Numbered from the stretch's first letter, positions 12,438 to 64,000 are shown. The stretch is DNA of 64,000 bases from Patescibacteria group bacterium (GCA_025999275.1 AP024680.1:244728-308727); one strand, 5' to 3'. Notes: generated by a model from the letters alone, not told the origin. Numbers and translations: made by a program.

Positions 12438-13249
12438 CAAGAATTCACATTTTTGATGTTGAACACGGGGAATGCAATGCCATAGAGACACCTTCTGGCG
12501 ATTTGGTATTGATAGGTGCTGGCCATAATTCCTCTACAAATTGGCGACCATCAAACTGGTTGCGACAGCGCAATCGAAGACCGCACTGTCTTGTTTTAAG
12601 CAATCTAGACCGAGATCATCTTTCTGATTTGGCGAATTTTGAACCCCATATCCGTCCAGTAAGTATTAAGTACAACAGCTATATTAATCCCGACTGGGCG
12701 GAAAGTAAAAAGATCGAAGAAAGTGGCGAGGTACACGAGGGGGTTCAGACAGCTCTGCATTGGATACGAAATGTTTTCACTGGCTCGCCAATATCTCCGA
12801 ACTATGGGATGGAAATTGCTTATTTTCATCATTCACCGACAAATTTTCAAGATACAAATAACTTGAGTGTTGTTACTTTTGTTGCTTACAACGGGGTTGG
12901 TGTAATGTTCCCAGGAGACATTGAAACCGCTGGATGGAGAGAATTTTTAACAAATCAGACATTTGTAAATTGTTTGAGGCGAACAAGGATTTTAATCGCT
13001 TCTCATCATGGACGAGAAAGCGGTTATTGTCGCGAAGTGTTCAATTACTGTGCTCCTGATGTAGTGATTATTTCTGATAAGCCGCTAATGCACGAGACAC
13101 AAAACCATAATCTCTACGCCCAGCATTGTAGTGGCTTAAACTCCAACGGTAATCTTAGGAAAGTATTAACTACCCGCAACGATGGTAAGCTTACGATTGA
13201 AATTCCGGCGATTGGAAACTATACCGTTTATATCAATCAAAATTATTGA
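12434..13249 (+). CDS. Metallo-beta-lactamase-fold hydrolase, ComEC/Rec2 C-terminal-domain-like (second paralog)
   Basis: FDVEHGECNAIETPSGDLVLIGAGH, SNLDRDH and IASHHGRESG repeat the motif arrangement of the preceding ORF. Confidence 0.55.
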   Translation: MTRIHIFDVEHGECNAIETPSGDLVLIGAGHNSSTNWRPSNWLRQRNRRPHCLVLSNLDRDHLSDLANFEPHIRPVSIKYNSYINPDWAESKKIEESGEVHEGVQTALHWIRNVFTGSPISPNYGMEIAYFHHSPTNFQDTNNLSVVTFVAYNGVGVMFPGDIETAGWREFLTNQTFVNCLRRTRILIASHHGRESGYCREVFNYCAPDVVIISDKPLMHETQNHNLYAQHCSGLNSNGNLRKVLTTRNDGKLTIEIPAIGNYTVYINQNY

Positions 13250-13252
13250 GCT

Positions 13253-13870
13253 ATGGAACAAAAAGTTTTCTCAAAATTTAATGTATATGACCAAATCGGC
13301 TACCTGATGGTTGGCGCACTTACCCTATTACTGCTTGTTTTTAACACAGTTTATTTCTTTCAAGTTGCTGTCCCCTCTTTCAGTTTAGATACTTTCTTAA
13401 TCTGGTTCATTGTCGCTTATTTTGTAGGACATTTTATGCAGGGAGTTGCAAATCTTATCAACGAGATAAAATTTTTGCGTTTTTTGGTTCCGGAAAACAA
13501 AAAAGATTTTGATGACAAGCAAAAAGAAATATTGCAACAAGCAAAAGAATATTTTGGATTACATAAACAAGATGACAGCAGATTATGGAATCTATGTTAT
13601 ATGTTAGCCAGCGCCAAAGATATAACTGGTCAAGTGCAAGCATTTAACTCCTATTACAGCTTGTATCGGGGTTGGCTCATCGTGTTTATTTTGGAGTCAT
13701 TGTTTTTACTCTATTTTATTTTTTCGGCTTTCAACTTGAACACTTTGCTGTTATTTTTGGCGAGCATATTTTTTTCTGTCATATTTTATCGGCGTTCAAA
13801 GCGCTTTTGGAGCTATACGAAGGATAAGGTTTTAGAAACTTTTGTCATTGTTAAAACTTTGAATCTATGA
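13253..13870 (+). CDS. Four-TM membrane protein of unknown function in the Mod-Res operon
   Basis: The start is 3 nt after the preceding stop and the stop overlaps the res start (ATGA). Two N-terminal and two C-terminal TM helices flank a charged cytoplasmic segment. Confidence 0.5.
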   Translation: MEQKVFSKFNVYDQIGYLMVGALTLLLLVFNTVYFFQVAVPSFSLDTFLIWFIVAYFVGHFMQGVANLINEIKFLRFLVPENKKDFDDKQKEILQQAKEYFGLHKQDDSRLWNLCYMLASAKDITGQVQAFNSYYSLYRGWLIVFILESLFLLYFIFSAFNLNTLLLFLASIFFSVIFYRRSKRFWSYTKDKVLETFVIVKTLNL

Positions 13871-28715: not shown

Positions 28716-28856
28716 CTATTCGCAGCATGGATCTTTAAAACCACAGTTTTTGCAAATAGCTTCTTTTGATCCGGCAACTACTCCTATTTCGTATCCACAT
28801 TGGGGGCATTTTTGAGTTTCTCTTTCTTTTTCTTTTTGGTTATTTTTATTATTCAT
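28716..28856 (-). CDS. Small zinc-ribbon protein of 46 aa
   Basis: MNNKNNQKEKERETQKCPQCGYEIGVVAGSKEAICKNCGFKDPCCE carries CxxC-x15-CxxC. Below the ORF-track cutoff. 9 nt upstream of 28191..28706. Confidence 0.45.
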   Translation of the reverse strand: MNNKNNQKEKERETQKCPQCGYEIGVVAGSKEAICKNCGFKDPCCE

Positions 28857-28907
28857 TTTTGGTATATTACAATCGTTTTATATTATATAATCGCCTTAAC
28901 AATTATT

Positions 28908-30383
28908 ATGAATGGAAAAAAAGTAGTTGTCGTTGGTGGTGGAATAGGAGGGTTGGCAACAGCTTCTCTTTTAGCTAAAGATGGCTATTCTGTCACTCTT
29001 ATTGAGAAAAATAGTACTTTGGGTGGTAGGGCAAGAAAGTTAGAGACTGGTGGTTTCACTTTTGATATGGGCCCATCGTGGTATATGATGCCTGAAGTTT
29101 TTGAGAATTACTTTTCTTTGTTTGGTAAAAAAGTTTCAGATTTTTATAAGCTCAAGAGATTAAAAACTCATTATCGTGTTTTTTTTGATGACGGTAAAAA
29201 AATTGATATAACCTCAGATATTAAGAAAAATCTTAATTTGTTTGCTCAGTTTGAAGAAAATGGCGACAAAAAGTTAAGAGAAATACTTGATGAGGCAAAG
29301 CGTGTTTATAACAAATCCATGGAATCACTCGTATTTGAGAGTTATAAAAATCCTTTTTCTCTTGTTAAAAAGGATGTATTACTTAATCTTATCAGCTTTG
29401 ATTTATTCCAAAGTCTTCATAACTACATAAAGAAAAGAATTAAAAGCCCATATCTTCAGAAAATACTTGAGTTTACTACAGTTTTTCTTGGGGGATCTCC
29501 CTTTAATACTCCCGCTTTTTATAAATTAGTTGCTCATGCGGATTTTGATTTGGGAATTTATTATCCTGTTGGTGGAATATATAAGGTTGTTAATGCCTTG
29601 GAATCTCTGGCTCGCAGTAACAATGTGAGAATTATATTAAATGAGTCGGTTGTAAAAGTTTCTTTTAGCGGCAAAAGTATAAAAAAAGTTATTACTAATA
29701 GATCTAGTTATGATTCTGATTTTGTTGTTGTTAATGCTGATTATGCTTTTTTTGAGACCAATATTTTACCCAAATCATTTAGAACTTATGATAAAGATTT
29801 TTGGAATGATAGAGTTTTGTCGCCTTCGGCGTTTTTGTTGTACTTAGGATTTGATGGTAATATAAATAAGAGCAGTCATCACAATCTTTATTTCACCAGT
29901 TCTTGGGAAAGAAATTTTGATGAGGTTTATAATGATCCTAGAATTCCTGATAACCCATCTTTTTATTGGCATATTCCTTCAAAAACTGATAGTAGTTTGG
30001 CACCAAAAGGTTGTTCTTCTGTTATGATATTGGTTCCTATTTCTCCCAAGGTTTCTTTTAGTAAATCATCTTTGAAAAATTTTTCGGATAGAATTATAGA
30101 TACATTTGCTAAAATAAATAATATATCAAATATTGAAAGTAAGATTTTGTTTAAGAAGGTATTTTATTCAAAAGATTTTATTAAAGATTATAATTCTTTC
30201 AAGGGTTCAGCTTTTGGAATTGCTCATACTCTTTCTCAGACAGCTATATTTCGGCCTAAGAATTTTTCGAAAAAAGTGGATAACCTTTTTTATGTTGGTC
30301 ACCACACTAATCCTGGAATTGGTATGCCTCCTGTGATAATTTCATCACAAATTGTTTACAATTTGATCAAAAATGAACATTAA
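28908..30383 (+). CDS. crtI: Phytoene desaturase family FAD-dependent oxidoreductase (CrtI/CrtN-like)
   Basis: FAD dinucleotide fold VVVVGGGIGGLATASLLAKDGYSVTLIEKNSTLGGRA. Length and C-terminal pattern fit CrtI. Start moved to MNGKK, because the upstream in-frame extension overlaps the opposite-strand zinc-ribbon gene. Confidence 0.8.
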   Translation: MNGKKVVVVGGGIGGLATASLLAKDGYSVTLIEKNSTLGGRARKLETGGFTFDMGPSWYMMPEVFENYFSLFGKKVSDFYKLKRLKTHYRVFFDDGKKIDITSDIKKNLNLFAQFEENGDKKLREILDEAKRVYNKSMESLVFESYKNPFSLVKKDVLLNLISFDLFQSLHNYIKKRIKSPYLQKILEFTTVFLGGSPFNTPAFYKLVAHADFDLGIYYPVGGIYKVVNALESLARSNNVRIILNESVVKVSFSGKSIKKVITNRSSYDSDFVVVNADYAFFETNILPKSFRTYDKDFWNDRVLSPSAFLLYLGFDGNINKSSHHNLYFTSSWERNFDEVYNDPRIPDNPSFYWHIPSKTDSSLAPKGCSSVMILVPISPKVSFSKSSLKNFSDRIIDTFAKINNISNIESKILFKKVFYSKDFIKDYNSFKGSAFGIAHTLSQTAIFRPKNFSKKVDNLFYVGHHTNPGIGMPPVIISSQIVYNLIKNEH

Positions 30384-31215
30384 TAAATATTCTCTTATAA
30401 CTAAAAAATATTCTAATACCTTTTACTATTCCACTCTAATTTTCCCAAAAGAAGTTAGAGATAAGGTTTTCGTTCTTTATTCCTTTGTTAGGACTATTGA
30501 TAATTTGATGGATAGTAAAAAACCAGACATAGCCAAATTTAATGATTTGAGAAGTAGTTTTGAGAAAGCTTGGAAGGGTGAACCTGTTAATAATAAACTA
30601 GTTGTTGATTTTGTTAGTGTTGCTAAAAGTAACAATTTTTCCAAAAAATGGATTGACGATTTTTTTGATGCTCAAATTTTAAGCGCCAAGAAGAAAACTT
30701 ATAATGATTTTGACGATTTGAAAAAAAATATTTATGGCGTGGCCGGGGTGATAGGTCTTTTTATGTCAAAGATTATTGGCTTGCCAAAAAAAGTTTATAA
30801 GAATGCTGTTCTTCTAGGAGAGTCGATGCAGATTATTAATTGTATGCGGGATATTGTTGAAGACTATAAAATGGGCAGAATCTATATTCCAGTTGAGGAT
30901 TTAGAAAAGTTTGGATTGAGTGTTGATAATTTTCTGAATAAGAAAAATAGAAATAAACTTAAGGAAGTTATTAATTTTCAATTACAGAGGGCTTTTAAAT
31001 TTGGAGAAAAAGCCTCTTTGTCATTTTCTTATTTTGACAAAAGAAATCTTCTTGCTGTAAAAACATCTTTTGATCTTTATTGCTTTATAGGCAAAAAGAT
31101 ATTAAAAGATCCAGAAATTATATTTCAAAGGAAAAAAATAAAGCCTGGTTTATTATTTATTTTGCTCACCTTTTTTAAAAATTTTTTTAATATCTATTTT
31201 TTGGGTAGAAAATAG
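30373..31215 (+). CDS. crtB: Phytoene/dehydrosqualene synthase family (CrtB/CrtM-like)
   Basis: Trans-isoprenyl diphosphate synthase head-to-head family, with YxxxR and Asp-rich motifs (YSFVRTIDNLMD, MRDIVEDYKMGRIYIP). Overlaps the crtI stop. Confidence 0.75.
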   Translation: MNINKYSLITKKYSNTFYYSTLIFPKEVRDKVFVLYSFVRTIDNLMDSKKPDIAKFNDLRSSFEKAWKGEPVNNKLVVDFVSVAKSNNFSKKWIDDFFDAQILSAKKKTYNDFDDLKKNIYGVAGVIGLFMSKIIGLPKKVYKNAVLLGESMQIINCMRDIVEDYKMGRIYIPVEDLEKFGLSVDNFLNKKNRNKLKEVINFQLQRAFKFGEKASLSFSYFDKRNLLAVKTSFDLYCFIGKKILKDPEIIFQRKKIKPGLLFILLTFFKNFFNIYFLGRK

Positions 31216-31220
31216 CTTTT

Positions 31221-31883
31221 ATGCCAAAAAGGTTTTTTTATCTTTTTTTGCTCTTGTTAATATTATTTTTGCCACTTTTATCCTCTATTTTTTATAAGAA
31301 TTTTGTTTTTCCTGAGTTTTTAAAGCTTGTTTTTTCTATTTTGTTGCCGTCGTTTATATTTATTCTTTGGGATTTGCGAGTTGTTGGAAAATGGTGGAGT
31401 TTTAACAATGATTATATTTTAGGTTACAGATTTAAGGGATTGCCTCTTGAGGAAATAATGTTTTTTCCTGTGGTTTCTTTTTCAACTCTTATTATATGGG
31501 TGAACCTAGAGAATTTGTTTGCTGATAGCTATTATTTTGTCTTTTTACCTGCTTTTATTTTTTTAATCTCATTTTTAATTTCTATTTTTTCTTATTTTAA
31601 GGGTAAAATTTACAGTTTTTTTGTTTTTGTTTTATTGTGTTTATTGTTTATTATGGATTTTTTAATAGGAACAAAAATCCTATTTTTAAAAAGGAATTAT
31701 ATTTTTATTTTGATTGTTATTTTTTTGACCCTTATTTTTAATTACCCTCTCACCAAGTTACCTGTTGTTTCTTATAACAAAAAATTTTTTTGGGGGAAGA
31801 GAATTCTAACAATTCCTTTTGAAGATTTTGTTTATGGAATTGATTTTTTGATTTTGGTGGTGATGATTTATCAGTTTCTTTAA
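31221..31883 (+). CDS. Lycopene cyclase domain membrane protein (fused CrtYc/CrtYd type)
   Basis: Polytopic membrane protein with two PxE(E/D) signatures (LPLEEIMFFP and IPFEDFVYG) in separate halves. Sits immediately after crtB. Confidence 0.55.
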   Translation: MPKRFFYLFLLLLILFLPLLSSIFYKNFVFPEFLKLVFSILLPSFIFILWDLRVVGKWWSFNNDYILGYRFKGLPLEEIMFFPVVSFSTLIIWVNLENLFADSYYFVFLPAFIFLISFLISIFSYFKGKIYSFFVFVLLCLLFIMDFLIGTKILFLKRNYIFILIVIFLTLIFNYPLTKLPVVSYNKKFFWGKRILTIPFEDFVYGIDFLILVVMIYQFL

Positions 31884-52194: not shown

Positions 52195-52297
52195 TAAGAT
52201 TTGGGTGTAAATCTTTACTGCTACTTATTTTAATTTTGGCCTTATTTTGTGGTAAAATTTAATAGATTAGTCAATACAGGTTCTTTGTAATTGCTCT

Positions 52298-52368
52298 TAT
52301 TATTCGGTCGTCTGTGCGAAGCAAGAGGAGTGATAGCGACGACATGGTAGGATTCTGCGAAGCAGAAT
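52298..52368 (+). other. tRNA-Gln 5'-half-like pseudo-element with a hairpin insertion
   Basis: ttattcggtcgtct...atggtaggat parallels the tRNA-Gln acceptor/D-arm tgcccggtcgtctaatggtaggac. A 30-nt gtcgtc...gacgac hairpin is inserted in the D-loop position. No T-arm. Confidence 0.3.
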
Positions 52369-52417
52369 AAGGACATTAAAAATAATAATAGACTCGGATT
52401 TTTTGGTTAGTTTTTAT

Positions 52418-52488
52418 TGCCCGGTCGTCTAATGGTAGGACACAGCGCTCTGGACGCTGGAATCGGGGTTCGAATCCCTGCTGGGCAG
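52418..52488 (+). tRNA. tRNA-Gln (anticodon CTG). CCA not encoded.
   Basis: Manual cloverleaf: acceptor tgcccgg/ctgggca, D-arm gtct-aatggta-ggac, anticodon arm cagcg-CTCTGGA-cgctg, T-arm cgggg-ttcgaat-ccctg. Confidence 0.85.
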
Positions 52489-52590
52489 CAAATTCTTCGC
52501 CAAGCCTCCAGGATTGTATGCGGCTCTGAAATCAAAATGGTTGTTAGTAGTTTGTAGTGGACTGAACCTATCTCACTATTATGATATCCA

Positions 52591-52627
52591 TTGTTGGAAG
52601 TTAATCAACTCCCGGAGTTGTAATGTT
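52591..52627 (+). repeat. Left copy of a ~37-bp direct repeat (35/37 identical to 60914..60950)
   Basis: ttgttggaagTtaatcaactcccggagttgTaatgtt. Contains the internal palindrome caactcc-c-ggagttg. Lies 103 nt downstream of tRNA-Gln. Confidence 0.6.
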
Positions 52628-52930
52628 GGAATGTTGGGATTATGATTCTTGGGGTTTAGTCCTTGAAGATTCTAACTCTATCGCAAAAACTCCTAACTTT
52701 TCCTTAAATGGCGGGTATAAACTTTTTAAAACTCTAAGAATTTGGTCTTTGGACATTCCTGGCACGATTCTTTCAGCTTCCTCATGCTCCAATATTCTTC
52801 ATGCTCATTGTTCAAAAGAAATCTCATTCCATGTTTTAACTTTTGGATGTCTCTATACCTAACCAAGACTTTTCGATTACTTTTATCCAAAAAACCAGAT
52901 GAAATATATTTAGAATCTATTTTGCCCTGT

Positions 52931-53965
52931 TTAGTTATCGATTAATTCCTCAATTTTATCTTTATTTTCTAGAACCCATTCGATAAGTTTCTCTAATCCA
53001 AAATTAATATCAGTTTTTGGTCTCCAGCCTAACTGATCTATGAGTTTTCTATTATTACTCACAAAAATTTTTTGATCTCCTGGTCTCCAGTCATCGTAAG
53101 AAATTTCAATTTTCTTTTTAAGTTTTTTCTCTAATAATGAAAGCGTCTCAATTATTGAAATCGAATTGCTTGGTCCACCACCAATATTAAAGATCTCTCC
53201 CTTCGTTTTCTCAATACTTCTTGTTGCTAAGTCCCAAGCTGAGAATAAATCATCTATATATAAAACGTCTCTTGTTTGTTTACCATTCCCGAAAATAGTA
53301 ATTTTTCTGTTTAATAAGAGGGCAATTACAAACCAAGCAACCCAGCCTTGGTCTTCAACACCGAATTGGTGTGGACCGTATATACAAGACTGGCGAAAAA
53401 CAACTGTAGAGAGGCCGTAGATTCTTGAATAGTCTCGCACATATTGGTCGGCAGCCCCTTTTGAACAACCATAAGGGGAATATAAATCAAGCGGATTCGA
53501 TTCTGAAATCCCGTTTATGTTGCTATACAAATATCGTGTTTTACTCTCTGTAATAGGTATGTTTTGCATATTTCCATAGACCTTGTTTGTTGATGAATAG
53601 ACCAATATTGCCTTAGGGTTTTTCTTTCTTATAGCTTCCAGTAGGTTGAACGTACCAACGGCATTAATTTCGAAGTCTTCTCGAGGATTTTGGACAGAAG
53701 TGGTAACGGCAGTTTGCGCAGCCAAATGATAAATTATGTCTGCCTGAACAACTTGTTCCTCTAGTTTTTGTGTATCAAAGCGGATATCCGCTTTGATAAC
53801 TGTCAACTTGTTTTTACCATACCTCCTAAGAAGCCATTGTGCATTTAAACTAGACCCTTTCTTAGAAAAATTATCTAAGATAATAACTTTATCGCCTCTC
53901 GACAATAAATTATTGGAAAAATTAGTTCCTATAAAACCTGCACCACCTGTAATCAAGTATTTCAT
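52931..53965 (-). CDS. NAD-dependent sugar epimerase/dehydratase (SDR extended family)
   Basis: MKYLITGGAGFIGTNF Rossmann entry and catalytic YSPYGCSKGAADQY (YxxxK). Start set at MKYL. Confidence 0.8.
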   Translation of the reverse strand: MKYLITGGAGFIGTNFSNNLLSRGDKVIILDNFSKKGSSLNAQWLLRRYGKNKLTVIKADIRFDTQKLEEQVVQADIIYHLAAQTAVTTSVQNPREDFEINAVGTFNLLEAIRKKNPKAILVYSSTNKVYGNMQNIPITESKTRYLYSNINGISESNPLDLYSPYGCSKGAADQYVRDYSRIYGLSTVVFRQSCIYGPHQFGVEDQGWVAWFVIALLLNRKITIFGNGKQTRDVLYIDDLFSAWDLATRSIEKTKGEIFNIGGGPSNSISIIETLSLLEKKLKKKIEISYDDWRPGDQKIFVSNNRKLIDQLGWRPKTDINFGLEKLIEWVLENKDKIEELIDN

Positions 53966-54025
53966 GGTTAATACTGACAATTATATCACTAATTCGCTAT
54001 AATTTGTTGTGTGGAATAAAAATTT

Positions 54026-55186
54026 ATGAAAAAACGGAGATGCCTTGTTATTAGCAGTCCTTATTCTTGGGGAGGAGGAATAAAAACAATGGTAGATGAA
54101 GGTTTAAAGATATTAGAATCTTTAGGATATAAAACTACTTTAGTAATGCCTTCCTATACTAAAGAAAGTAGGAACAATGAAATAAAAGCTAAAAAGATTT
54201 CCACACCATGGTTTATAAATTTCGATAAATACCCCCTACTACATCACATTGTGTTTGGATTAAAGTTAAAAAATCTTCGGCAAAGATATGATATTGCCCT
54301 AGCTATAGTAGCCACTTCTCACACTGCACTACCTCTTGCATTAAGTGGAAAGCGCTTCGGTATTTGGGTAGCTACTAACTATGCGGATGAGCTAGAAGCA
54401 AAATTTAATTCTAACTTAGGAGATGAGCCAGCTAAAAGATTAAAAAACAGTATTCAGTGGCAATTTCTTGAAAAGATAGAAAAATATGTCCTAAGAAAAG
54501 CCACTAGTATTCTAGCTCTAAGTGATTATACCGCGTCTAGACTTCTTAGACTTGAACCACGTATCAAATCAAAACTAAGTGTTTTTCACCCACCAATTAA
54601 TACCGATTTGTTTTCCCCAGGAATATCAACTAAAAAGGTTAATGGATTAATAGTTAATACTGGAAGGATAAATGACCCGAGAAAAAATACACATTTACTA
54701 ATTAAATCATTCGCAAGAATCTTAAAAAGTTTTCCACAAGCTAGACTACTATTGGTTGGAGATAAAGCAGATGGCCATTTAATTAAGCTTATAGAGTCAC
54801 TGGGGTTAAAAAACTTCGTTGAAATTATTCCAGAAAAGCCACGGGAGGAGATAACAAGCTATTTAAGAAGGGCAGAAGTTTTCGTGGCCACACCGGTGCA
54901 GGAGGGATTAGGGATTTCAATTTTGGAAGCGATGAGCTGTGGTTTGCCAGTCGTAATAACTCGTTGTGGAGGACCAGAAACTATAATTAAAAGAAGCGGA
55001 GGGGGTATTATTACTAATAATAACGAAAAGGATTTTTCAGAAGCAGTCATTAACCTATTGTTAAATAAGCCCCTTCGCATAAAGATGGGATTTAAAGGAA
55101 GAAAATATATCAGAAACAACTTATCTTTTACTTCACAAAGAAAAAGATTAGCACTGGAACTTAATAAACAGTATGCAAAACAATAG
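54026..55186 (+). CDS. Glycosyltransferase family 4 (GT-B, group 1)
   Basis: EGLGISILEAMSCGLPVVITRCGGPETII, the GT4 E-x7-E region. Confidence 0.75.
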   Translation: MKKRRCLVISSPYSWGGGIKTMVDEGLKILESLGYKTTLVMPSYTKESRNNEIKAKKISTPWFINFDKYPLLHHIVFGLKLKNLRQRYDIALAIVATSHTALPLALSGKRFGIWVATNYADELEAKFNSNLGDEPAKRLKNSIQWQFLEKIEKYVLRKATSILALSDYTASRLLRLEPRIKSKLSVFHPPINTDLFSPGISTKKVNGLIVNTGRINDPRKNTHLLIKSFARILKSFPQARLLLVGDKADGHLIKLIESLGLKNFVEIIPEKPREEITSYLRRAEVFVATPVQEGLGISILEAMSCGLPVVITRCGGPETIIKRSGGGIITNNNEKDFSEAVINLLLNKPLRIKMGFKGRKYIRNNLSFTSQRKRLALELNKQYAKQ

Positions 55187-55820
55187 GAAAATTTACTTAA
55201 TCGATCTCGATAACTGTCTGTATAAAATCAAGGACGTTCCGGGCTTAGTAAATACTTTCGAAACCAGAATTACTGCCTGGCTTGCTAATAAACTTGGGTG
55301 TAGCATTAATAATGCTGAAAAAGAAAAAGTTAAACTATATAAGAAGTTTGGAGGAGCGCCACGTTGCCTCGTAAGGGCATCAATTATTAAAAACAAGAAT
55401 GAGTTGATAAACTGCGTTGATTTTATCCACGATTTCAACGTTAGTGCTTGTGGAATAGATAAAAACTTGAATCTAAAACAAAAACTCAGTGAATTAGATG
55501 AAGAGTTATACCTTTTCACAAGTTCTTATGTAAAATACGCAAAACAAATGCTTGTGGCCTTGGGCGTGTTAGATCTATTTTCTGACATCATAGATATTTC
55601 GAAAGTCGAATACTCATTTAAGGACGAAACAATTACTTACACAAAAATATTTAGTTTGCTGAGCATATCTCCCAATAAGATTACCATGGTAGATGATTCT
55701 TTAGAAAATCTATTAGTTGCGAGTAGAATGGGTATTAAAAAATGTGTTTGGGTTAATCATGGGGAAACAAAACAACGTGCCGATTTTGTGAGGTCTATTA
55801 CCAGTATTATGGATTTATAG
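55173..55820 (+). CDS. HAD family hydrolase (pyrimidine 5'-nucleotidase-like)
   Basis: HAD motif I IYLIDLDNCLY. C-terminal TMVDDSLENL/GIK fit motifs III/IV. Confidence 0.5.
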   Translation: MQNNRKIYLIDLDNCLYKIKDVPGLVNTFETRITAWLANKLGCSINNAEKEKVKLYKKFGGAPRCLVRASIIKNKNELINCVDFIHDFNVSACGIDKNLNLKQKLSELDEELYLFTSSYVKYAKQMLVALGVLDLFSDIIDISKVEYSFKDETITYTKIFSLLSISPNKITMVDDSLENLLVASRMGIKKCVWVNHGETKQRADFVRSITSIMDL

Positions 55821-55824
55821 AAAA

Positions 55825-56364
55825 CTAAGTTTGGGGATAGGAACTTTCTGGGTCACCAATATAACCTCTAATAATTACTAAATTCATAAACTTCTTGGTG
55901 TAATAGTGGTGTTCAAATGCTAAGAAATCATATTTGCTCCAAACTGACATGTGAGCTTCTAACTTATGGCCCCTCCATGAATACTGAATATATTTAGAGG
56001 GAAAGACAATTAAAATATAACGACTTCTATACATCAAATAATTAATTAAATCTTCTCCGTCTGATTTCTTTAGATGTTCTAGGCAATCACCAATTATTGC
56101 TATATCAGTTTTAAAATCTGGTTTATTGTCGAAGAAGGTTTCTATCCTAGAACAGTATACCCTGTCATAGATTGAATTCAGTTTAAATTTCTTGATATAA
56201 GAGGCGTTAGCTTCTATGGCCACTACTCTGGATTTGGGCAAAATTTTTTTAATCATCTTGCCATATTTTCCAGCTCCAGCACCAATATCTATATAGTTTC
56301 TAAATTTATGCTCCAGAATAAAATTTTCAACTTGTTTATCAAATGTTGGATCGGAATAGGGCAT
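55825..56364 (-). CDS. Small class I SAM-dependent methyltransferase (FkbM-like)
   Basis: Motif I YIDIGAGAGKYG. 179 aa. Confidence 0.5.
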   Translation of the reverse strand: MPYSDPTFDKQVENFILEHKFRNYIDIGAGAGKYGKMIKKILPKSRVVAIEANASYIKKFKLNSIYDRVYCSRIETFFDNKPDFKTDIAIIGDCLEHLKKSDGEDLINYLMYRSRYILIVFPSKYIQYSWRGHKLEAHMSVWSKYDFLAFEHHYYTKKFMNLVIIRGYIGDPESSYPQT

Positions 56365-56365
56365 A

Positions 56366-57115
56366 TCAATCTAAATAATTATCAATCAATGATTTTAAAT
56401 CATTTGGGAAAGGAAATCGATATTTTCTAAGATATTGCTTTGTCACCTTGTCGTTTAAATCTCTCGGTAAAAATCTAAAAGCGTAGTTATTCTGTTTCAA
56501 TCCTTTTATATACTTGAGGTGGTAGTGATATGCTCCATCTAAACACAATGTTTTCGATGTAGGCTTAAGAAAACAATCTGGAACATTTTCATATTCTCCT
56601 TTTTGATACTTCTGAAATCTTGTTAATACTCTAACATGGGGATCTACCATTAATACTCCGTTCCAAACAGCCTCATAAACATGTAAATAGAAATTTTTAT
56701 CAAAAATGTGATTGCAAGTAATAGCAATACTGTTATAAAACGGATCTCTAACAACCTTTTCAATAAATGGTTTAAGATTCCTACTTATAAGTTCGTCTCC
56801 GTCTATAAGCACTAGGGCGTCGAATTTAAAATTCGAAAAAATAAAATCAAGAAAAGTGTTTCGCACTTTCATCTCGTGTTGTAAATCCCTAGAACCATTT
56901 GGAAGATAATTAATCATAGAATGTTGGAAAAGTGGTTCTATTAAAGTAAGTTTGGGAATGTTGTGTCTTCTCGATAAAATTGATAAAATACTCCTAGTTT
57001 TATCAGAACTATGATCATCGTAGATAACTATTTGATTCACCCACGATATTGAAGTAATCATAGATTCTATAAACAATTCTGCATTCTTAATTATTGAGGC
57101 TGCGAGTATTTTCAT
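56366..57115 (-). CDS. Glycosyltransferase family 2
   Basis: N-terminal GT-A fold with IVIYDDHSSDKT (DxD-containing). 2-nt gap to the upstream gene. Confidence 0.65.
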   Translation of the reverse strand: MKILAASIIKNAELFIESMITSISWVNQIVIYDDHSSDKTRSILSILSRRHNIPKLTLIEPLFQHSMINYLPNGSRDLQHEMKVRNTFLDFIFSNFKFDALVLIDGDELISRNLKPFIEKVVRDPFYNSIAITCNHIFDKNFYLHVYEAVWNGVLMVDPHVRVLTRFQKYQKGEYENVPDCFLKPTSKTLCLDGAYHYHLKYIKGLKQNNYAFRFLPRDLNDKVTKQYLRKYRFPFPNDLKSLIDNYLD

Positions 57116-58449
57116 CTTAATAAATTATAAAGATAATCATAATTAGGTAAACTGCCTACAATTGATGGTGAAAGAAGTGATTGATACAAGGTATGATAAT
57201 ATTTGATAATTTTCTCAGGGTCAAAGTTTTTCTGAAAAATTTTCTTACTTTTCACACCCATCTTAATCCTCAGCTCTTTAGATTCTATTAATCTCCCCAA
57301 CAGGTCAGCAGTGGATTCTGTATCTCCCACTTTGACAACATAACCATTTACACCGTTTTTGACTTGGAAAGCAAGCCCCCCTACATTTGTAACCAATACT
57401 GGTTTTTCATGAAACATCGCTTCGGTAATTGCTAAACCAAAACACTCCATTCTCGACAACATAACTACAATATCAGAGCGCCTATATATTTCTGAAAGGT
57501 TCATATAATCAACACTGCCCGCAAAGATAACTCTATTTGTTAAATTGAGGTCTCTAACCAAATTTTGTGCTTCTAAAAGGTAATTCCTTCTTACATTAGA
57601 GATATTATCTGTAAACGATCCGCCACCCACTAAAACTAAGTAAGAGTTCTTGAATTTATTGCTAATTTTTGAAAACCCTTCTATTAGTTGTGTATGACCC
57701 GATTTCGCATCAAAACGCTGGATACAAGTAATTACAATAGATCCTGGTGGAATTTGTTTGAAAACACTAGGAAGCTCTGTTACTCTACTCATAACATTTT
57801 TATCTATCATGGGGGGGAGGACTATTGATTTTTGGGGCTTTAATCCATGTTTTATGGCAATCTCTGAATACTGAGGGATAGAAAAAACCATTTTATCTGC
57901 TTTATTACCATATCTAACAAGCCATTTGGCAACTGTTCTATCTATATTATCGATCAACGGCGCATGCAAGCTAAAAATTGACTTCACTTCTAATGGAATA
58001 TTTGACAATCCAAGCATAACCTGATAATCCTGGAAATGGACGAGATCTATATTGTTGTTAGAGAGGACATCAAGTATGCGTTTTGAGAATAACTCCGAGC
58101 AAAAAACAAAGTCTTTATAGCCAGGAACATCATCAATCGTTTGATACTTAAACTGTCTTATCCCATGCAAGTGCTGGTATATTTCCTCTTTAAAGGCTGC
58201 ATAACCTTGAAATACTTCCTTAGGAATCTCTGATCGAGAGATAATATACTCTTTGATAGGGTAGCCCAAGGCTTCTGAAGCCGATACATTAGTTGACATT
58301 TCAAAATGTATCGCATAAATCTTATAGTTAAGTTGTGACAGATAACGAGAAAGATTAAGGAGCAAAGTTGACACTCCGCCAACCCTAGGATAGAAAGACT
58401 GACTTACAAATAAAATAGATCGCTCTTTATTTCCGTTAAAGATTTTCAT
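57112..58449 (-). CDS. Glycosyltransferase family 4 (GT-B)
   Basis: MECFGLAITEAMFHEKPVLVTNVGG C-terminal signature. 4-nt overlap with the downstream GT2 gene. Confidence 0.7.
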   Translation of the reverse strand: MKIFNGNKERSILFVSQSFYPRVGGVSTLLLNLSRYLSQLNYKIYAIHFEMSTNVSASEALGYPIKEYIISRSEIPKEVFQGYAAFKEEIYQHLHGIRQFKYQTIDDVPGYKDFVFCSELFSKRILDVLSNNNIDLVHFQDYQVMLGLSNIPLEVKSIFSLHAPLIDNIDRTVAKWLVRYGNKADKMVFSIPQYSEIAIKHGLKPQKSIVLPPMIDKNVMSRVTELPSVFKQIPPGSIVITCIQRFDAKSGHTQLIEGFSKISNKFKNSYLVLVGGGSFTDNISNVRRNYLLEAQNLVRDLNLTNRVIFAGSVDYMNLSEIYRRSDIVVMLSRMECFGLAITEAMFHEKPVLVTNVGGLAFQVKNGVNGYVVKVGDTESTADLLGRLIESKELRIKMGVKSKKIFQKNFDPEKIIKYYHTLYQSLLSPSIVGSLPNYDYLYNLLR

Positions 58450-59200
58450 AAGTTTGTTTTGATTTTGTTGTAGGCAAGAGTCTTATTCCGCCATCAACGA
58501 GCTCACTATCAAGATTATCTAGTATTCCACAAGCAACATCTTTTGGATTATCCAAGTCAGACTCGGAAAATTTTTTCACAAGCTCCTTCGCACCAATGGC
58601 GTTTTTGGCAATATTTGTTTTTATGCCAGTTGGACAGACAAGAATAAATTTCACTCCCTGTTCTTCAAACTCTGGTGCTAACGACCTGAATAGTCCAGCC
58701 AAACCCTCTTTTGCAGCTGAATAAACTGAAAATTTCTTGTGTCCGGGTTTTATACCAGCAAGGGATCCTAATTGAACCACATATTTCTTGTCTTTAGCTT
58801 TAATTATCACTGGTAGCATTTTCTTTATTAACATTATGGCACTTGTTAAGTTTACATCGATTACGGTTTTAACTTCCGAGTCATTAAGATAAAGAAAGGG
58901 TTTATACATTGCGACTCCTGCGGTGTTAATGAGTAAATTTAGATTGCCGAGTGCCTTTATAGAAAAGTTCGCTAATTTATCAACTTGACGTGAATTAGTG
59001 ATGTCCGTTTTAATAACAAATAGTTTTGCTCTTTTGCCTGAATATCGATTTTTAATCTTCAAAAGATTACTTATATTTCGACTGGCTGCTACTACTTTAG
59101 CGCCTCTCTTTAACAACTCTCTTACTATTTCCAAACCCAAGCCAGAAGAAGCTCCAACTACTAGACAGTGCATGTTCGTAAAATCAGGTAATTTTTTCAT
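58436..59200 (-). CDS. SDR family oxidoreductase
   Basis: CLVVGASSGLGLEIV (TGxxxGxG) and catalytic YSAAKEG. Start moved to MKKLPDF to avoid overlapping the upstream acetyltransferase. Confidence 0.7.
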   Translation of the reverse strand: MKKLPDFTNMHCLVVGASSGLGLEIVRELLKRGAKVVAASRNISNLLKIKNRYSGKRAKLFVIKTDITNSRQVDKLANFSIKALGNLNLLINTAGVAMYKPFLYLNDSEVKTVIDVNLTSAIMLIKKMLPVIIKAKDKKYVVQLGSLAGIKPGHKKFSVYSAAKEGLAGLFRSLAPEFEEQGVKFILVCPTGIKTNIAKNAIGAKELVKKFSESDLDNPKDVACGILDNLDSELVDGGIRLLPTTKSKQTYENL

Positions 59201-59753
59201 TTCTCGGGTGAATTTTACGTATAAATTTCGCTGGGGAACCTCCCCATAATTCAGCTTGTGGAACATCCTTGGTTACAACCGAACCCGCAGCAATCCAAGA
59301 AAAATCATTTACCTGTAAACCCGTATTTCCAGCTACTAATTTTGTATCGTTCATAAGCCAGCAAAATTTACCTACGCGAATACTTTGTTGAGTGCCTATT
59401 AAAATTTCTTGCCAATTAGCCTTTTTATCTTCCAAGGGATGGTTGTTGGTTATAAAACTTACATTTGCTCCTATAAGGGTATAGTCACCAATAGAAATCT
59501 TACCCATACCAGCCATATCTGTTGATGCGGGAACTTTTACACCTTTCCCGATCTCTATGTTTTCTGGATACCATACTTTCACCCTATGATGAACTATAGA
59601 ACCCTCCCCTATTTTAGCCCCTGCTAACCTTAACCAATAGGTGTATAACCTTGACCAAATATCTGTAGGCATTTCACCTAAAAATCCTGACCACAATCTT
59701 GCATCAGACTCACAAAATAAGCGATATATCGAGCGAAAAATTAAATGACCCAT
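59184..59753 (-). CDS. Hexapeptide-repeat (left-handed beta-helix) acetyltransferase
   Basis: Imperfect [LIV]-G-x4 hexad repeats (IGEGSIV, IGKGVKV, IGDYTLIGANVSF), as in sugar O-acetyltransferases. Confidence 0.7.
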   Translation of the reverse strand: MGHLIFRSIYRLFCESDARLWSGFLGEMPTDIWSRLYTYWLRLAGAKIGEGSIVHHRVKVWYPENIEIGKGVKVPASTDMAGMGKISIGDYTLIGANVSFITNNHPLEDKKANWQEILIGTQQSIRVGKFCWLMNDTKLVAGNTGLQVNDFSWIAAGSVVTKDVPQAELWGGSPAKFIRKIHPRNEKIT

Positions 59754-59785
59754 ATTTGATATTTTATCATTTTTACATTATTTTG

Positions 59786-59791
59786 TATAAT
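59786..59791 (+). promoter_or_regulatory. Candidate -10 element (TATAAT with adjacent upstream TG) for erm
   Basis: ttttgTATAATat located ~20 nt upstream of the erm SD. No convincing -35 and no leader peptide or attenuator seen. Confidence 0.3.
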
Positions 59792-59810
59792 ATAGCAAAG
59801 GAGGGAGGTA

Positions 59811-60701
59811 TTGAGAAGAACTGTGTCTGAAAGAGGTGGTATCGAGCGGGGAGGTCGTGAACTATGGCAGTCACAGAACTTTCTGAGAAGGCCAGAGTTT
59901 GTAGCAAGTCTAGTAGAAAGAACTGATATAACCCGTGACGACCTTGTTATTGAAATAGGTCCTGGGAAAGGGATAATTACTCAGCAATTAGCACGCAGAG
60001 CTAGAAGAGTAATAGCAGTTGAGATAGACAAGGGATTGGCAGGAAACCTTCGAGCCTCTTTCCAGAATTCACCCAATGTTGAAATTGTTGAAGCTGATTT
60101 CTTGAAATGGTGGTTGCCAAGAGAACCTTATAAAGTTTTTTCCAATATTCCTTTTAATATGACTGCCGATATTGTCAGAAGACTTACAGAAGACAGAAAC
60201 CCTCCACTAGTTGCCTACTTAATTATGCAAGATAAAGCAGCATTTCGTTTTATGGGGAGGCCAAAAGATTCACAAACATCAATTTTATTAAAACCATGGT
60301 TTGAAGTAGAAATAGTAGCAAACATAGATAGGAGAGAATTTACCCCAGTTCCTAAAATAAATGCAGTTCTTGCAAAGTTTAGAAAAAGAGAGCAGCCTTT
60401 AGTTAAACCTGAGTTTTGCCAATGGTTCAGAGATTTTGTTGTTTATGGATATAATCAGTGGAAACCTACAATACTTGATGCGTTTAGAGAAGTATTTAGT
60501 CCAAAACAGAGGAATATTTTAGAAAGAGAGCTGAGAATTAGAGGTGCAAGACCCTCTGATTTAACACTTGAACAGTGGCTTAAACTATTTGAAACATTTT
60601 GTGTTTATGTACCTTCTGATAAAAAAGAAGTTGTTAAGGGGGCTGAAGAAAGACTGAAGAGACAGCAAGGAAGCTTAAAGAAACGGCATAGAACTAGATA
60701 G
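59811..60701 (+). CDS. erm: Erm-family 23S rRNA (adenine-N6)-methyltransferase, putative macrolide-lincosamide-streptogramin B resistance determinant
   Basis: SQNFL, EIGPGKG and NIPFNMTADI, then an Erm-like C-terminal domain (IDRREFTPVPKINAVLAKFRK, LTLEQWLKLFE) that resembles actinomycete Erm proteins rather than KsgA. GC is clearly higher than the flanks. SD aaggaggg 6 nt before a TTG start. Confidence 0.7.
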   Translation: MRRTVSERGGIERGGRELWQSQNFLRRPEFVASLVERTDITRDDLVIEIGPGKGIITQQLARRARRVIAVEIDKGLAGNLRASFQNSPNVEIVEADFLKWWLPREPYKVFSNIPFNMTADIVRRLTEDRNPPLVAYLIMQDKAAFRFMGRPKDSQTSILLKPWFEVEIVANIDRREFTPVPKINAVLAKFRKREQPLVKPEFCQWFRDFVVYGYNQWKPTILDAFREVFSPKQRNILERELRIRGARPSDLTLEQWLKLFETFCVYVPSDKKEVVKGAEERLKRQQGSLKKRHRTR

Positions 60702-60913
60702 ATTTAGGCTACGGCTAAAAGTTGCTGGGTAGATTTGAGAGTAAGCTCTGGAAATTCCAGGATGTTTAACCAGTTGGCTCGCCTGAAATCGTTCCATTTG
60801 TCCAGCCATTCTTTGCTCAATCTAAGGAATTTCATAGTGCTTTGAAACCAAATGATTGTTAATTTTTATACTCTTCCTGTGGGGGGTTAGCTTGTTTTAT
60901 GGTGCGAAACCCG

Positions 60914-60950
60914 TTGTTGGAAGCTAATCAACTCCCGGAGTTGGAATGTT
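60914..60950 (+). repeat. Right copy of the ~37-bp direct repeat
   Basis: ttgttggaagCtaatcaactcccggagttgGaatgtt. 35/37 identical to 52591..52627, in the same orientation. Confidence 0.6.
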
Positions 60951-61056
60951 TTTTGAAATGTGGGGTTTGCAAGCAATAATCAATCTTTGTTTTTCTTCTA
61001 TTTTGATCTTTCCAATTACAAAGTATAGTTGGAAGCCAAGGATAAGATGTTGCTTT

Positions 61057-62121
61057 TTATATTTGGCTTAGTTTGTAAAGCACTTGTTCGAACTTCTCTG
61101 TTGAATAGTCCTCCATTGGCCATTTAGCTATAATACCAAAAGTTGTTGTCATTTCTTTTTGGATTTCAGCTCTAGGAAGCAATTCTCTAATCTTTTTTCT
61201 TACAATTTGGTCAACTTTCTTGGTTCCCCAAAAGTCTAAATTAACTTTTTTGCTTTGAATGTATAAAGAAATAGAAATTTTATCATTATAACTAGTCATT
61301 ACATGGAAAGTTAAACTTTTTGGTGTTTTTGCTACATCTACATTTTCTATTTTTTTTCTTCCTTCTCTCAAGTCGTTAAAGAATGTGATTAGTTCTTTAA
61401 CTTTTTCCTGCTCTGGCAGACCTTGGTAAGCTTTTATGAAATCATCATCTGTCGGTATAACTTTAACTCCTGTTTTCCCTATATCTTTTTTAACTTCTGC
61501 TCCATAAAGTTTGGGAATTAAGATTTCGAATTCTTGGTGTTTATAGTATTCGAGTTCTATGGCGTAAATGCTAAATTCACTATTGTTGTTTAAGAAAACA
61601 ATTAAATCCTTAAGTTGATCATGCAAATGGTCCATCAAAACCACAAATTTGAAATTGCCGTCGTTCAAATTTCTTCTGAGATTTTCTAATAGTGTTTTTT
61701 CTTCTTCCTCTGAGATACCAAAAAAGTCATTCAATCTTTGCCTTAGATTCTGATTAAAATCTTTACTTGTATGCGTTTCTATCTGATCAATAAAATCATT
61801 AAAATCTCGATAGTTAGACCAGAGAGAGGCGCCGTAGTCTAAAACTTGGGCGACAACAGTTCTTTTGTCGGGATTTTTATAAAGCTTTGTTTCGATTAGA
61901 TAAATTTCACCTTCTTTGTCAATTCCCACAGCATCAATTGGTCCGCTTTTGGTAGAAAATTCCCGAGCCAAAATTAAAAGCCTAATGTCTTCTTTAATGT
62001 CGTAAAGAGGAATACTTTCTGGGTTGTCGTAGATGTATTGTTGGAGGTGATCTTCCAGCTCAAAATTGCTTTTATCAAGCTTAATCGCATTTTTACCGTT
62101 TTTTGAGATAATAATTGCCAT
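61057..62121 (-). CDS. Hypothetical protein with an N-terminal PD-(D/E)xK nuclease-like (NucS/RecB-like) domain
   Basis: GPIDAVGIDKEGEIYLIETKL is a D...E-x-K arrangement in a beta-hairpin context. The C-terminal 200 aa are unassigned. Confidence 0.4.
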   Translation of the reverse strand: MAIIISKNGKNAIKLDKSNFELEDHLQQYIYDNPESIPLYDIKEDIRLLILAREFSTKSGPIDAVGIDKEGEIYLIETKLYKNPDKRTVVAQVLDYGASLWSNYRDFNDFIDQIETHTSKDFNQNLRQRLNDFFGISEEEEKTLLENLRRNLNDGNFKFVVLMDHLHDQLKDLIVFLNNNSEFSIYAIELEYYKHQEFEILIPKLYGAEVKKDIGKTGVKVIPTDDDFIKAYQGLPEQEKVKELITFFNDLREGRKKIENVDVAKTPKSLTFHVMTSYNDKISISLYIQSKKVNLDFWGTKKVDQIVRKKIRELLPRAEIQKEMTTTFGIIAKWPMEDYSTEKFEQVLYKLSQI

Positions 62122-62346
62122 TTTATTTCAACTTTTCAGTTAACAATTCAAAAAATAGCACTAACCAACAATTATACCTCTCTTATTTAGCAGTATTTTT
62201 TTATTATTTCTCGGTTGCTTGGGTTATTGCTCACTAACTTCACATTGATTATACAAAAATTGATAGTTTTTTTCATTTTTTATGAATTTATCATTATTAA
62301 TATAATTATTTTATATACATTTTTGGAGGCTATCTAACTTTCGAAG

Positions 62347-62892
62347 TTAGTTGTTTTGCCTGTTATAGAGCCTTTTTGGGCCATTATTGTAAGGCATATA
62401 ATTTTTTCTTTGATGATATAGGGGTTTGTTTCCTTTTTCTATTTGTTGATAAAGTTTTCTAATAGGCCCTCTTTTTGCCCAGATATTGTTTAATCCCGTT
62501 TTTTCAATTATAAAAGCGGAAATTATTGCAGATGCTATAAACAATATGGTAATAACTAGGAAGTTCTTCTTGTAGGAAAAATCATATTTTTTAAGCATCA
62601 TTAAACCAATACCTATACCCAAAATTGAAAGAATTGGTATCCAAATTGGAAAACAGGAGAACATTATTGATAATTTCCCATATCCTGGTCCTTGTTTCTT
62701 AATGAGAAAAATAATTAGGTTTATAAGAAATGAGGTTGTAATAAAACTTGTTATCAACCCGATGAATGTAAGGAAAGAACCAACTACAAAATACCATCTT
62801 GGTTTCATAACCACCTCGCCTGAGGATATTTTTTTCATTACCTCGTTTTCAATTTTTTTATATTTATTTTTTATATTCTTTCTTGCTTGCAT
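62347..62892 (-). CDS. Membrane protein downstream of the ECF sigma factor (putative anti-sigma factor)
   Basis: Overlaps the sigma gene by 22 nt. Four predicted TM helices. Confidence 0.4.
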   Translation of the reverse strand: MQARKNIKNKYKKIENEVMKKISSGEVVMKPRWYFVVGSFLTFIGLITSFITTSFLINLIIFLIKKQGPGYGKLSIMFSCFPIWIPILSILGIGIGLMMLKKYDFSYKKNFLVITILFIASAIISAFIIEKTGLNNIWAKRGPIRKLYQQIEKGNKPLYHQRKNYMPYNNGPKRLYNRQNN

Positions 62893-63419
62893 ATTTTTTT
62901 CATTAAAGCTTTGGCACGATTTATTCGAGTGCCAACAGTTCCTTTAGGTATTCTTAAAATATCACTTATTTCTTCATAAGTTTTTTCCTCTAGAAATGAA
63001 AGTGACAAAATCTCCCTATAGATAATAGGCATTTTGTTTAAGCATTTATTTACCTGTTTTTTTATTTCTTTTTTGCCAAATTCTTCTTCAAGATTATCAT
63101 TGCTTTCAATTTCAATTTTTCCATCAAGAGAAATATGTTTTTTCTCTTTTTTAATAAGGTTAATTGATTCGTTATGTACAATTCTATAAATATAGCTGCT
63201 GAATTTCTTTTTTGTGTTAAAACTATTTAAGTTTATATAGGCTTTGATAAATGAGTTTTGAACAACATCAGCAGCTTTATCTTCATCCCCAATCAGATAG
63301 GTAGCATATCTTGTTAGTTTGTTGCTATAACGCCTAATTATATGGGCAAATAATTCTTTGTCTTTTTTCCGAACAAGTTCTACTATTTTTTCGTCTGATA
63401 GTTTTTCTATGTTTTCCAT
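62871..63419 (-). CDS. RNA polymerase ECF-type sigma-70 factor
   Basis: Region 2 (VVQNSFIKAYINLNSF) and region 4 HTH (YREILSLSFLEEKTYEEISDILRIPKGTVGTRINRA). Confidence 0.8.
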   Translation of the reverse strand: MENIEKLSDEKIVELVRKKDKELFAHIIRRYSNKLTRYATYLIGDEDKAADVVQNSFIKAYINLNSFNTKKKFSSYIYRIVHNESINLIKKEKKHISLDGKIEIESNDNLEEEFGKKEIKKQVNKCLNKMPIIYREILSLSFLEEKTYEEISDILRIPKGTVGTRINRAKALMKKICKQERI

Positions 63420-63506: not shown

Positions 63507-63882
63507 TTAGCGGTTTGCATTTCGACCGTAACCCATTCTTTGTCCTGATCCGTTTTGCAAACCTAACCCAAGTTCTGCTCTTATGGTATTGGCTTGGTCA
63601 GTTTTGCCTTCAAGCATTAGTTTATGCATTTCTGCAAATTTTGCAAAGTTGCTCTCATTTATTACTTGAGTAACTCTGCCTCTTCCCTGCATGAGCTCTT
63701 TCCATGCTTTGTAATCTTTATTTTCAAAAGCTTTTATCATAGCTTCATGCCTTTCTTCAGAGTAATTTGGACCCTTAACATTTGGATCGCCTCTGTAGGC
63801 AAGAGTTTTTGAGGAGCTTGCAAAAAGCATTCCTCCTCCAATTATTATGCTTGCTAGGGCTAGTAATTTTTTGTTCATATTT
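63507..63882 (-). CDS. Hypothetical secreted protein
   Basis: Start set at MNKKLLALASIIIGGGMLFA (signal peptide). The upstream in-frame extension has no SD. Confidence 0.35.
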
Positions 63883-64000
63883 ATCACCTCCTTTCTAATT
63901 GTTATACAAAATTTACCTTCTTTTTCTTTCAACCAAAATATCTTTGGGATATGCTTTGCTTGTGAGTTTAAAGTTAAAAAAAGGCTTTCTTTTTCTTCTT

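Follow-up and report, generated by a model that had tools for sequence, protein, structure and literature searches.

The stretch of DNA analysed here, hereafter the window, comprises 64,000 nt of a Patescibacteria group bacterium (GCA_025999275.1, AP024680.1:244728-308727). Just downstream of its tRNA-Gln gene lies an 8.3-kb island of genes for cell-surface sugars and for antibiotic resistance, the latter an Erm-type methyltransferase, bracketed by two short direct repeats that we call cores. The genomes of Patescibacteria, or Candidate Phyla Radiation (CPR), are tiny and contain few mobile elements that can be recognised as such, and little is documented about how these bacteria acquire accessory genes. 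Accessory islands flanked by repeats at tRNA hotspots are ordinary features; what is unusual here is the host. The original prediction, which proposed such an interpretation of the locus, is partly supported by our analysis.

The anchor of the locus is the tRNA-Gln gene (anticodon CTG; 52418-52489, + strand), identified by ARAGORN and by the Rfam tRNA model with 57 bits. Core copy 1, TTGTTGGAAGTTAATCAACTCCCGGAGTTGTAATGTT, occupies 52591-52627, and core copy 2, TTGTTGGAAGCTAATCAACTCCCGGAGTTGGAATGTT, occupies 60914-60950, both on the + strand. The two near-identical, same-orientation copies that had been described at 52591 and 60914 are therefore real: they match at 35 of 37 bases, and such a pair was yielded by none of 100 dinucleotide shuffles. 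Ungapped extension from 52583 and 60906 gives 40 matches in 45, the longest perfect run common to both cores is 19 nt, and the ~36-nt core sequence is TGTTGGAAGYTAAYCAACTCCCGGAGTTGKAATGTT. The 7-bp inverted repeat attributed to each copy was also found, as a 15-nt palindrome, CAACTCC-C-GGAGTTG (7+1+7), at 52606-52620 and at 60929-60943. Palindromes of the 7+7 type with at least four G/C per arm number six in the window, and two of these six are the cores. In both copies, GTTGGAA-like direct heptamers flank the palindrome on either side, and on the + strand the palindrome of core 2 is followed by AATGTTTTTT, which is terminator-like.

Further core copies with up to nine mismatches are absent from both strands of the 64-kb window. 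Scans of genome, metagenome and viral collections (among which the source genome evidently is not) with the pattern GGAAGN5CAACTCCCGGAGTTG returned three chance matches only, inside coding regions of unrelated taxa, and the repeat unit had no blastn match among phage and plasmid sequences. In the window, where it has two copies, and in these public collections, the repeat gives no sign of being a common dispersed element. A literature search on the locus found nothing relevant. A candidate third copy at 62312-62356 (+ strand; 28/45) was rejected, being at chance level (6 of 60 Markov shuffles reached at least 28/45) and absent from contig L003 of the second strain introduced below. At this site the palindrome arms are changed symmetrically (CTAACTT-TCG-AAGTTAG), and it overlaps the stop codon of a 181-aa gene beside an extracytoplasmic function (ECF) sigma factor. 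The pair itself is not an assembly artefact, since two independent Logan assemblies, DRR290133 and SRR23829991, each hold both cores on a single contig; the DRR290133 assembly is 100% identical to the window.

The cores do not stand alone. Local alignment of 52492-52642 with 60808-60969 gives one collinear match with a score of 38, against 14.9 +/- 1.6 for shuffled sequences, and none of 300 shuffles reaches 38. These segments, of ~150 nt and ~160 nt, respectively, both on the + strand, are the two repeat units. Unit 1 is the trailer of tRNA-Gln: it begins 2-3 nt past the 3′ end of the gene, with 101 nt between that end and the start of core 1 (the 103 nt given originally was essentially right). 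Because unit 1 starts right at the tRNA 3′ end, unit 2 is read as a displaced copy, a paralogue, of the tRNA-Gln trailer. In a block upstream of the cores, the units match at 37 of 55 positions, which was equalled by 1 of 1000 shuffles, and past the cores the similarity goes on for ~15 nt after a 4-nt indel. Conservation is uneven: the cores match in 37 of 40 columns and the upstream part of the units in 58 of 106 (Fisher p = 7e-4). In sum, the cores are more than short crossover cores: they are where conservation peaks within homologous units of ~150 nt, whose similarity extends to either side. The tRNA-Gln itself is not duplicated and the repeats exclude its 3′ end; alignment of the tRNA with its upstream region to 60640-60806 was at chance level (619 and 402 of 1000 shuffles as good), and a decayed tRNA beside copy 2 was discarded as a candidate because no similarity was found.

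Directly upstream of tRNA-Gln we observed a conserved structured element of ~70 nt (window 52296-52380, + strand; 11096-11182 and 11214-11300 in L010; 10669-10752 in L008). It starts like the tRNA 5′ end (GGTCGTCT...ATGGTAGGA), with an extra hairpin inserted and a GNRA-type loop in the place of the anticodon loop. In L010 it is tandemly duplicated as a 118-nt unit, and among the four sequences there are compensatory changes in three base pairs; it has no Rfam match. This element may be a tRNA-derived RNA that is co-transcribed with tRNA-Gln. A second observation concerns the assemblies. The Logan contigs of four samples all end within the anticodon region of tRNA-Gln, at window 52430-52454 (ends of L001, L002, L008 and L009; starts of L003 and L004). 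As evidence of excision we discarded these breaks, judging them to be presumably ordinary branching of the assembly graph among co-occurring relatives that share parts of the tRNA. Their consequence is that short-read assemblies cannot join the island to its left flank.

Between the cores, a 303-nt spacer (52628-52930) contains no conserved gene; a 79-aa open reading frame (ORF) at 52623-52862 has no family match, and the spacer is absent from L016, a relative described below. The nine-gene module then opens on the - strand with a sugar epimerase/dehydratase that is NAD-dependent (52931-53980; Pfam PF16363 and PF01370), named CDP-paratose 2-epimerase in one source. It is followed on the + strand by a GT4 glycosyltransferase (54026-55186; PF00534, PF13439) and a HAD-family hydrolase (55173-55820; PF00702, 29 bits against a cutoff of 26.4). 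Five genes on the - strand come next: a probable S-adenosylmethionine (SAM) methyltransferase (55825-56364), with a sub-threshold match to PF08242 (23.6 bits, cutoff 30) and a weak one to an NCBIfam pseudaminic-acid-associated methylase; a possible, unconfirmed GT2-like glycosyltransferase (56366-57115), with sub-threshold matches to PF13704 and PF00535 only; a GT4 glycosyltransferase of 445 aa (57112-58449; PF00534); a short-chain dehydrogenase/reductase (SDR; 58436-59266; PF00106); and a hexapeptide-repeat acyl/acetyltransferase (59184-59753; PF00132, 28.7 bits against a cutoff of 27). The right end of the module is the + strand gene of an Erm-type 23S rRNA adenine methyltransferase (59811-60701, with a likely start at 59823), which scores 237 bits against a cutoff of 212 with NCBIfam Erm23S_rRNA_broad. 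From the gene list first proposed, the epimerase, two GT4 enzymes, the HAD protein, the SDR, the acetyltransferase (all by Pfam) and Erm hold, while the third glycosyltransferase and the methyltransferase have sub-threshold matches only.

Domain scans covered window ORFs of at least 110 aa, with 40-47 kb judged from annotation. Within this scope, neither the block nor the rest of the window yielded an integrase, recombinase or transposase domain, in agreement with the earlier statement that the window has no integrase. Pfam also revealed no transcription factor gene in the block.

Comparison with relatives indicates that the nine-gene block, from epimerase to Erm, is a discrete transferable module that recurs in a different genomic context. 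L016 (GCA_964384775.1) has the same nine genes in the same order, with 76.3% nucleotide identity over window 52952-60702. There the terminal stop codons mark the limits of the homology; the neighbouring genes on either side are unrelated, and neither the tRNA nor the core is present. A flanking repeat around the block in L016 (25/31) was rejected as not significant, 37 of 300 shuffles being as good. In L015 the block is 86.4% identical at the nucleotide level, homology ends at 60731 and the contig stops 30 nt after erm. The proposal that the block is an island-like unit is thus borne out, both by its unrelated context in L016 and by L015.

The locus, too, is variable. In L010 the protein beside the tRNA is 53% identical and the order of eleven upstream genes is conserved, but none of the cargo after tRNA-Gln(CTG) is the same. 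L010 lacks the island, but with other cargo and no core it is not a clean empty site. Here, direct repeats of 102 nt with 90% identity (11534-11635 and 13580-13681) bracket a 2-kb insert downstream of tRNA-Gln, which carries a major facilitator superfamily (MFS) transporter and ORFs of 79 aa and 61 aa; no recombinase domain was recorded in it (MFS_1 only). The 3′ end of a KsgA-like gene forms the right repeat, with the left one as a fragment copy. This is a second, independent case at this locus of an insertion bracketed by repeats. In L012 (7572-10861) and L013 (6097-10819), tRNA-Gln(CTG) is followed at a distance of 2.4-3.8 kb, among other genes, by Erm homologues of 78-79% amino-acid identity. 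The region downstream of this tRNA therefore varies among L010, L012 and L013, in line with the integration hotspot originally postulated, and we conclude that the trailer region of tRNA-Gln(CTG) is a recurrent insertion hotspot in the clade. We rejected the idea that the core is conserved in the tRNA-Gln trailers of these three relatives, since it is absent from all of them. As side observations on the methyltransferase, the Erm gene of L012 is convergent with a KsgA-like gene, and Microgenomates and Shapirobacteria-type CPR genomes widely carry Erm-type 23S rRNA methyltransferases of 75-82% amino-acid identity.

A second strain, SRR23829991 (contigs L001 and L003), allowed us to see what varies today. 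Over 52430-60760 it differs from the window at only three positions, so that 8.3 kb of island are 99.96% identical, and its core 1 (L003 162-198) is identical to that of the window. From 60761 onwards the picture changes: 12 single-nucleotide differences in 56 nt are followed by a 94-nt deletion whose right end coincides with the left edge of core 2. This core 2 allele (L003 8392-8428) differs at 3 of 37 positions, with 2 differences counted in 40 nt of core in the per-base comparison, and its flanks are deleted or unalignable; core 2 is thus retained in an otherwise diverged allele. To its right, similarity is lost ~5 nt past the core and resumes at 62388. By blastn, per-base differences and gene lists, the segment differing between the strains is window 60761-62387, against L003 8334-10372. 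In the window it contains a candidate defence gene on the - strand (61057-62121), encoding a 354-aa NucS-like nuclease (PADLOC PDC-S11, 1.6e-16; weak matches to NCBIfam NucS and Pfam RnlA). In L003 the same slot holds a B12-binding radical-SAM gene and a downstream 54-aa ORF, which might form a peptide-modification pair. The polymorphic unit between strains is this cassette to the right of copy 2, and not the 8.3-kb island. Presence/absence polymorphism of 52628-60913, the check suggested at the outset, was not seen between these two strains, both of which carry the island. Inside the island, a 1-nt insertion at window 57376 in SRR23829991 (L003 4683-6021) splits the 445-aa GT4 gene into ORFs of 49 aa and 381 aa, a frameshift that could represent inactivation or phase-like variation of a surface-sugar gene.

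We hypothesize that an old single-crossover insertion into the tRNA-Gln trailer left the two repeats as its junctions, an explanation that we hold to have about an even chance of being right. A circular DNA with the nine-gene cell-surface-sugar and Erm module would have recombined by a single crossover into the ~150-nt trailer after tRNA-Gln(CTG). The trailer would thereby have been duplicated, so that a copy borders the inserted DNA at either end (attL/attR-like, Campbell-type), and the crossover would have taken place within the ~36-40-nt core, which is still 95% identical. The island would now be fixed and vertically inherited in the species, with today's variation at the locus arising where the cassette next to copy 2, on its right, is replaced. 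The repeats, the ~150-nt units, the modular nature of the block, the variable locus and the strain polymorphism are demonstrated; that an insertion produced the duplication, and by which mechanism, we infer. This reading is favoured by the non-random repeats, whose only two copies in 64 kb flank the block on its two sides, by the ~150-nt units that begin at the tRNA, by the discrete module, by the hotspot and by the independent insert in L010. It is also favoured by strain breakpoints that abut both edges of core 2, with the 94-nt deletion on the left and the replacement ~5 nt past the right edge, and by the lack of integrase or transposase domains among the tested window ORFs. Of current mobility of the block we found no sign.

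As for what drove the crossover, homology or short homology between related trailer sequences is a possibility that we advance tentatively, and a classical tRNA-targeting integrase seems to us doubtful. We favour the former because the similarity extends beyond the core in both directions, the tested ORFs include no recombinase gene and the duplication leaves out the tRNA. Islands delimited by attL/attR through tyrosine-type integrases do share several traits with this locus, namely an accessory block directly downstream of a tRNA gene, same-orientation direct repeats of tens of nucleotides, occurrence of the block elsewhere in a different context and variability of the locus among relatives. 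Here, in contrast, the repeats begin ~100 nt beyond the tRNA and leave out its 3′ end, the tested ORFs encode no integrase, similarity extends to both sides of the core, base composition is typical and no empty site was seen. Campbell-type single-crossover integration resembles our case in that a shared segment of ~150 nt is duplicated directly on both sides and no recombinase is needed in the insert; the 102-nt duplication of a gene 3′ end in L010 has the same form. On the other side of this comparison, identity outside the core is 55-62% and the perfect run is 19 nt, which are low values for a RecA-dependent crossover, and the event is reconstructed from its products.

Several observations weigh against an insertion scar. 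An empty-site allele, sought among strains and relatives, was not found, nor was an excision junction, and both sampled strains carry the island. Homology of the block to L016 and L015 stops with the terminal stop codons, which lie 303 nt and 212 nt inside the repeats, so that the ends of the island cannot be tied to the repeats by comparison, and L016 has no significant flanking repeat. The base composition of the block is not atypical (GC 0.31-0.38, against 0.25-0.43 across the window), and a 19-nt perfect run is short for RecA-type recombination. Finally, the core is conserved far above its flanks and between diverged alleles of copy 2, which points to selection on the core itself, something that a neutral scar does not explain. 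This argues that the core is itself functional, either as a recombination site or as a terminator or protein-binding element.

We tried several specific functions for the core and rejected them. An ECF-sigma promoter (GGAAG-N16-GTTG; the ECF sigma gene is at 62871-63419) lacks the conserved AAC/CGT features, and no similar motif occurs upstream of the sigma operon. For a sigma-70 promoter, the scanner gave no hexamer pair common to both copies. A small protein starting in the repeat (GGAG-N5-ATG) is contradicted by ORFs of 79, 41 and 16 aa that share no frame, by the 4-nt indel and by the lack of family matches. A structured RNA is contradicted by folds that are inconsistent between copies and not better than those of shuffled sequences (z-scores -0.1 to -1.3). 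Searches against Rfam gave no match to the core at gathering thresholds and no credible match at E <= 10 over either copy.

The main rival to an old insertion, which we consider somewhat unlikely, is that the cores are functional cis-elements, either a terminator/insulator or the site of a dimeric DNA-binding protein, and that the trailer was duplicated as a regulatory unit. In one variant, a 6-7-bp hairpin would end the tRNA-Gln and erm transcripts and block read-through; in the other, a dimer would bind the 15-nt palindrome and the GTTGGAA repeats. Such a role would fit the conservation of the core well above its flanks, between copies as well as between diverged alleles, and the fact that each copy follows a + strand gene at a distance of 100-210 nt (tRNA-Gln, erm, and erm in L003). 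A T to C change in L003 extends the palindrome to 8 bp, and the radical-SAM gene there starts 83 nt after the core, in the same orientation. Like Rho-independent terminators, the cores offer a G+C-rich hairpin downstream of genes, and core 2, in which the hairpin is followed by a T-run (AATGTTTTTT), was flagged as terminator-like; core 1 has no T-run and was not flagged. The stem of 6-7 bp with a loop of 1-3 nt and the conserved 15 nt ahead of the hairpin, superfluous for a terminator, are unlike that class, and canonical terminators of the source genome, e.g., the hairpin downstream of the gene at 63507-63932, differ from the core. The inconsistent RNA folds and the lack of an Rfam match or of a consistent sigma-70-type promoter also count against a regulatory role, as do the absence of a transcription factor from the block and the fact that just two copies exist in 64 kb, both exactly flanking the block. 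The alternative of paired regulatory sites raised in the original prediction is weakened: in the window, both copies lie in intergenic regions between convergent 3′ ends, where operators are unexpected, and neither scan nor comparison gave a consistent promoter.

An old insertion must also be weighed against the idea, in our view quite unlikely, that the core is the site of a still-active site-specific recombinase encoded elsewhere, which would stack or exchange cassettes after tRNA-Gln by tandem accretion or in an integron-like way. The order would then read tRNA, core, sugar and erm island, core, and a swappable slot for defence or radical-SAM genes. Such a system would be at work in an ultra-small symbiont genome that encodes its recombinase away from the locus. 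Same-orientation cores do divide successive cargo blocks, the cassette to the right of core 2 does differ between strains that are 99.96% identical across the island, and the breakpoints do abut both core edges. Arms that end in CAAC and start with GTTG around a 7-bp centre may loosely recall tyrosine-recombinase core sites. Against this, no recombinase gene was found among the tested ORFs of the 64 kb, and the left strain breakpoint, at ~60761, precedes the core by ~150 nt and falls where identity is 79%; such a position in a diverged homologous stretch is more readily explained by homologous replacement with a diverged allele than by site-specific exchange. The right breakpoint is within the 3′ end of the next gene, the putative third site is at chance level, and the 7+1+7 palindrome does not have a 6-8-bp spacer between its arms. 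Arrays of integron attC sites are likewise made of same-orientation palindromic repeats that divide cargo blocks, one of which is here exchanged between strains, and by our reading of the sequence the core arms resemble RYYYAAC and GTTRRRY at 6 of 7 positions each. Their attC sites measure 57-141 nt, with R''/L'' and L'/R' boxes, against 15-21 nt of palindromic sequence in the core, and we found no attC (~57 nt or more, with R and L boxes), no IntI integrase among the tested window ORFs, and no attI or Pc promoter; one of the "cassettes" would moreover be a nine-gene block on both strands. Short imperfect palindromes in intergenic DNA that border a segment on both sides and point the same way also recall repetitive extragenic palindromic elements and bacterial interspersed mosaic elements (REP/BIME) and the hairpin ends of IS200/IS605-type elements. 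Unlike these, the core has two copies in 64 kb and no related match in the collection scans, there is no Y1/HUH transposase, and a cargo of 8.3 kb is far too large. It appears very improbable to us that the tRNA trailer was duplicated by a local segmental event, for example as a by-product of a rearrangement, with no relation to acquisition of the block and with copies that flank it by coincidence. Such a duplication would account for units that are homologous over ~150 nt with decayed flanks, and for a block common to other genomes that ends several hundred nucleotides inside the repeats. It would leave the strong excess conservation of the core unexplained and require two copies to bracket exactly the shared module by an unlikely coincidence, and L010, with the same pattern of a repeat-bracketed insert in this place, also speaks against it.

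Elsewhere in the window, we noticed two further gene groups. A cluster of raised GC (9721-16356; 0.40-0.43 against ~0.33) contains an N6/N4 DNA methylase and an 829-aa ResIII/SNF2 helicase, with three genes without matches between them; the C-terminal part of the helicase has a sub-threshold match to a TnsA-like endonuclease. This cluster looks like a type III-like restriction or defence island. At 28800-31883, three adjacent carotenoid-like genes encode a flavin amine-oxidase-type (phytoene-desaturase-like) protein, a squalene/phytoene synthase and a lycopene cyclase, a pathway that is unexpected for a reduced Patescibacteria genome.

Taken together, the locus provides a concrete and testable example of accessory-gene gain in these bacteria, in which a surface-glycan and Erm module common to lineages, a tRNA-Gln hotspot, a duplicated trailer and an adjoining strain-variable cassette come together. 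If the core is only a scar or a terminator, this would be an ordinary genomic island. If the core is a recombination site, it would suggest a route of gene acquisition in CPR bacteria that needs no integrase in cis.

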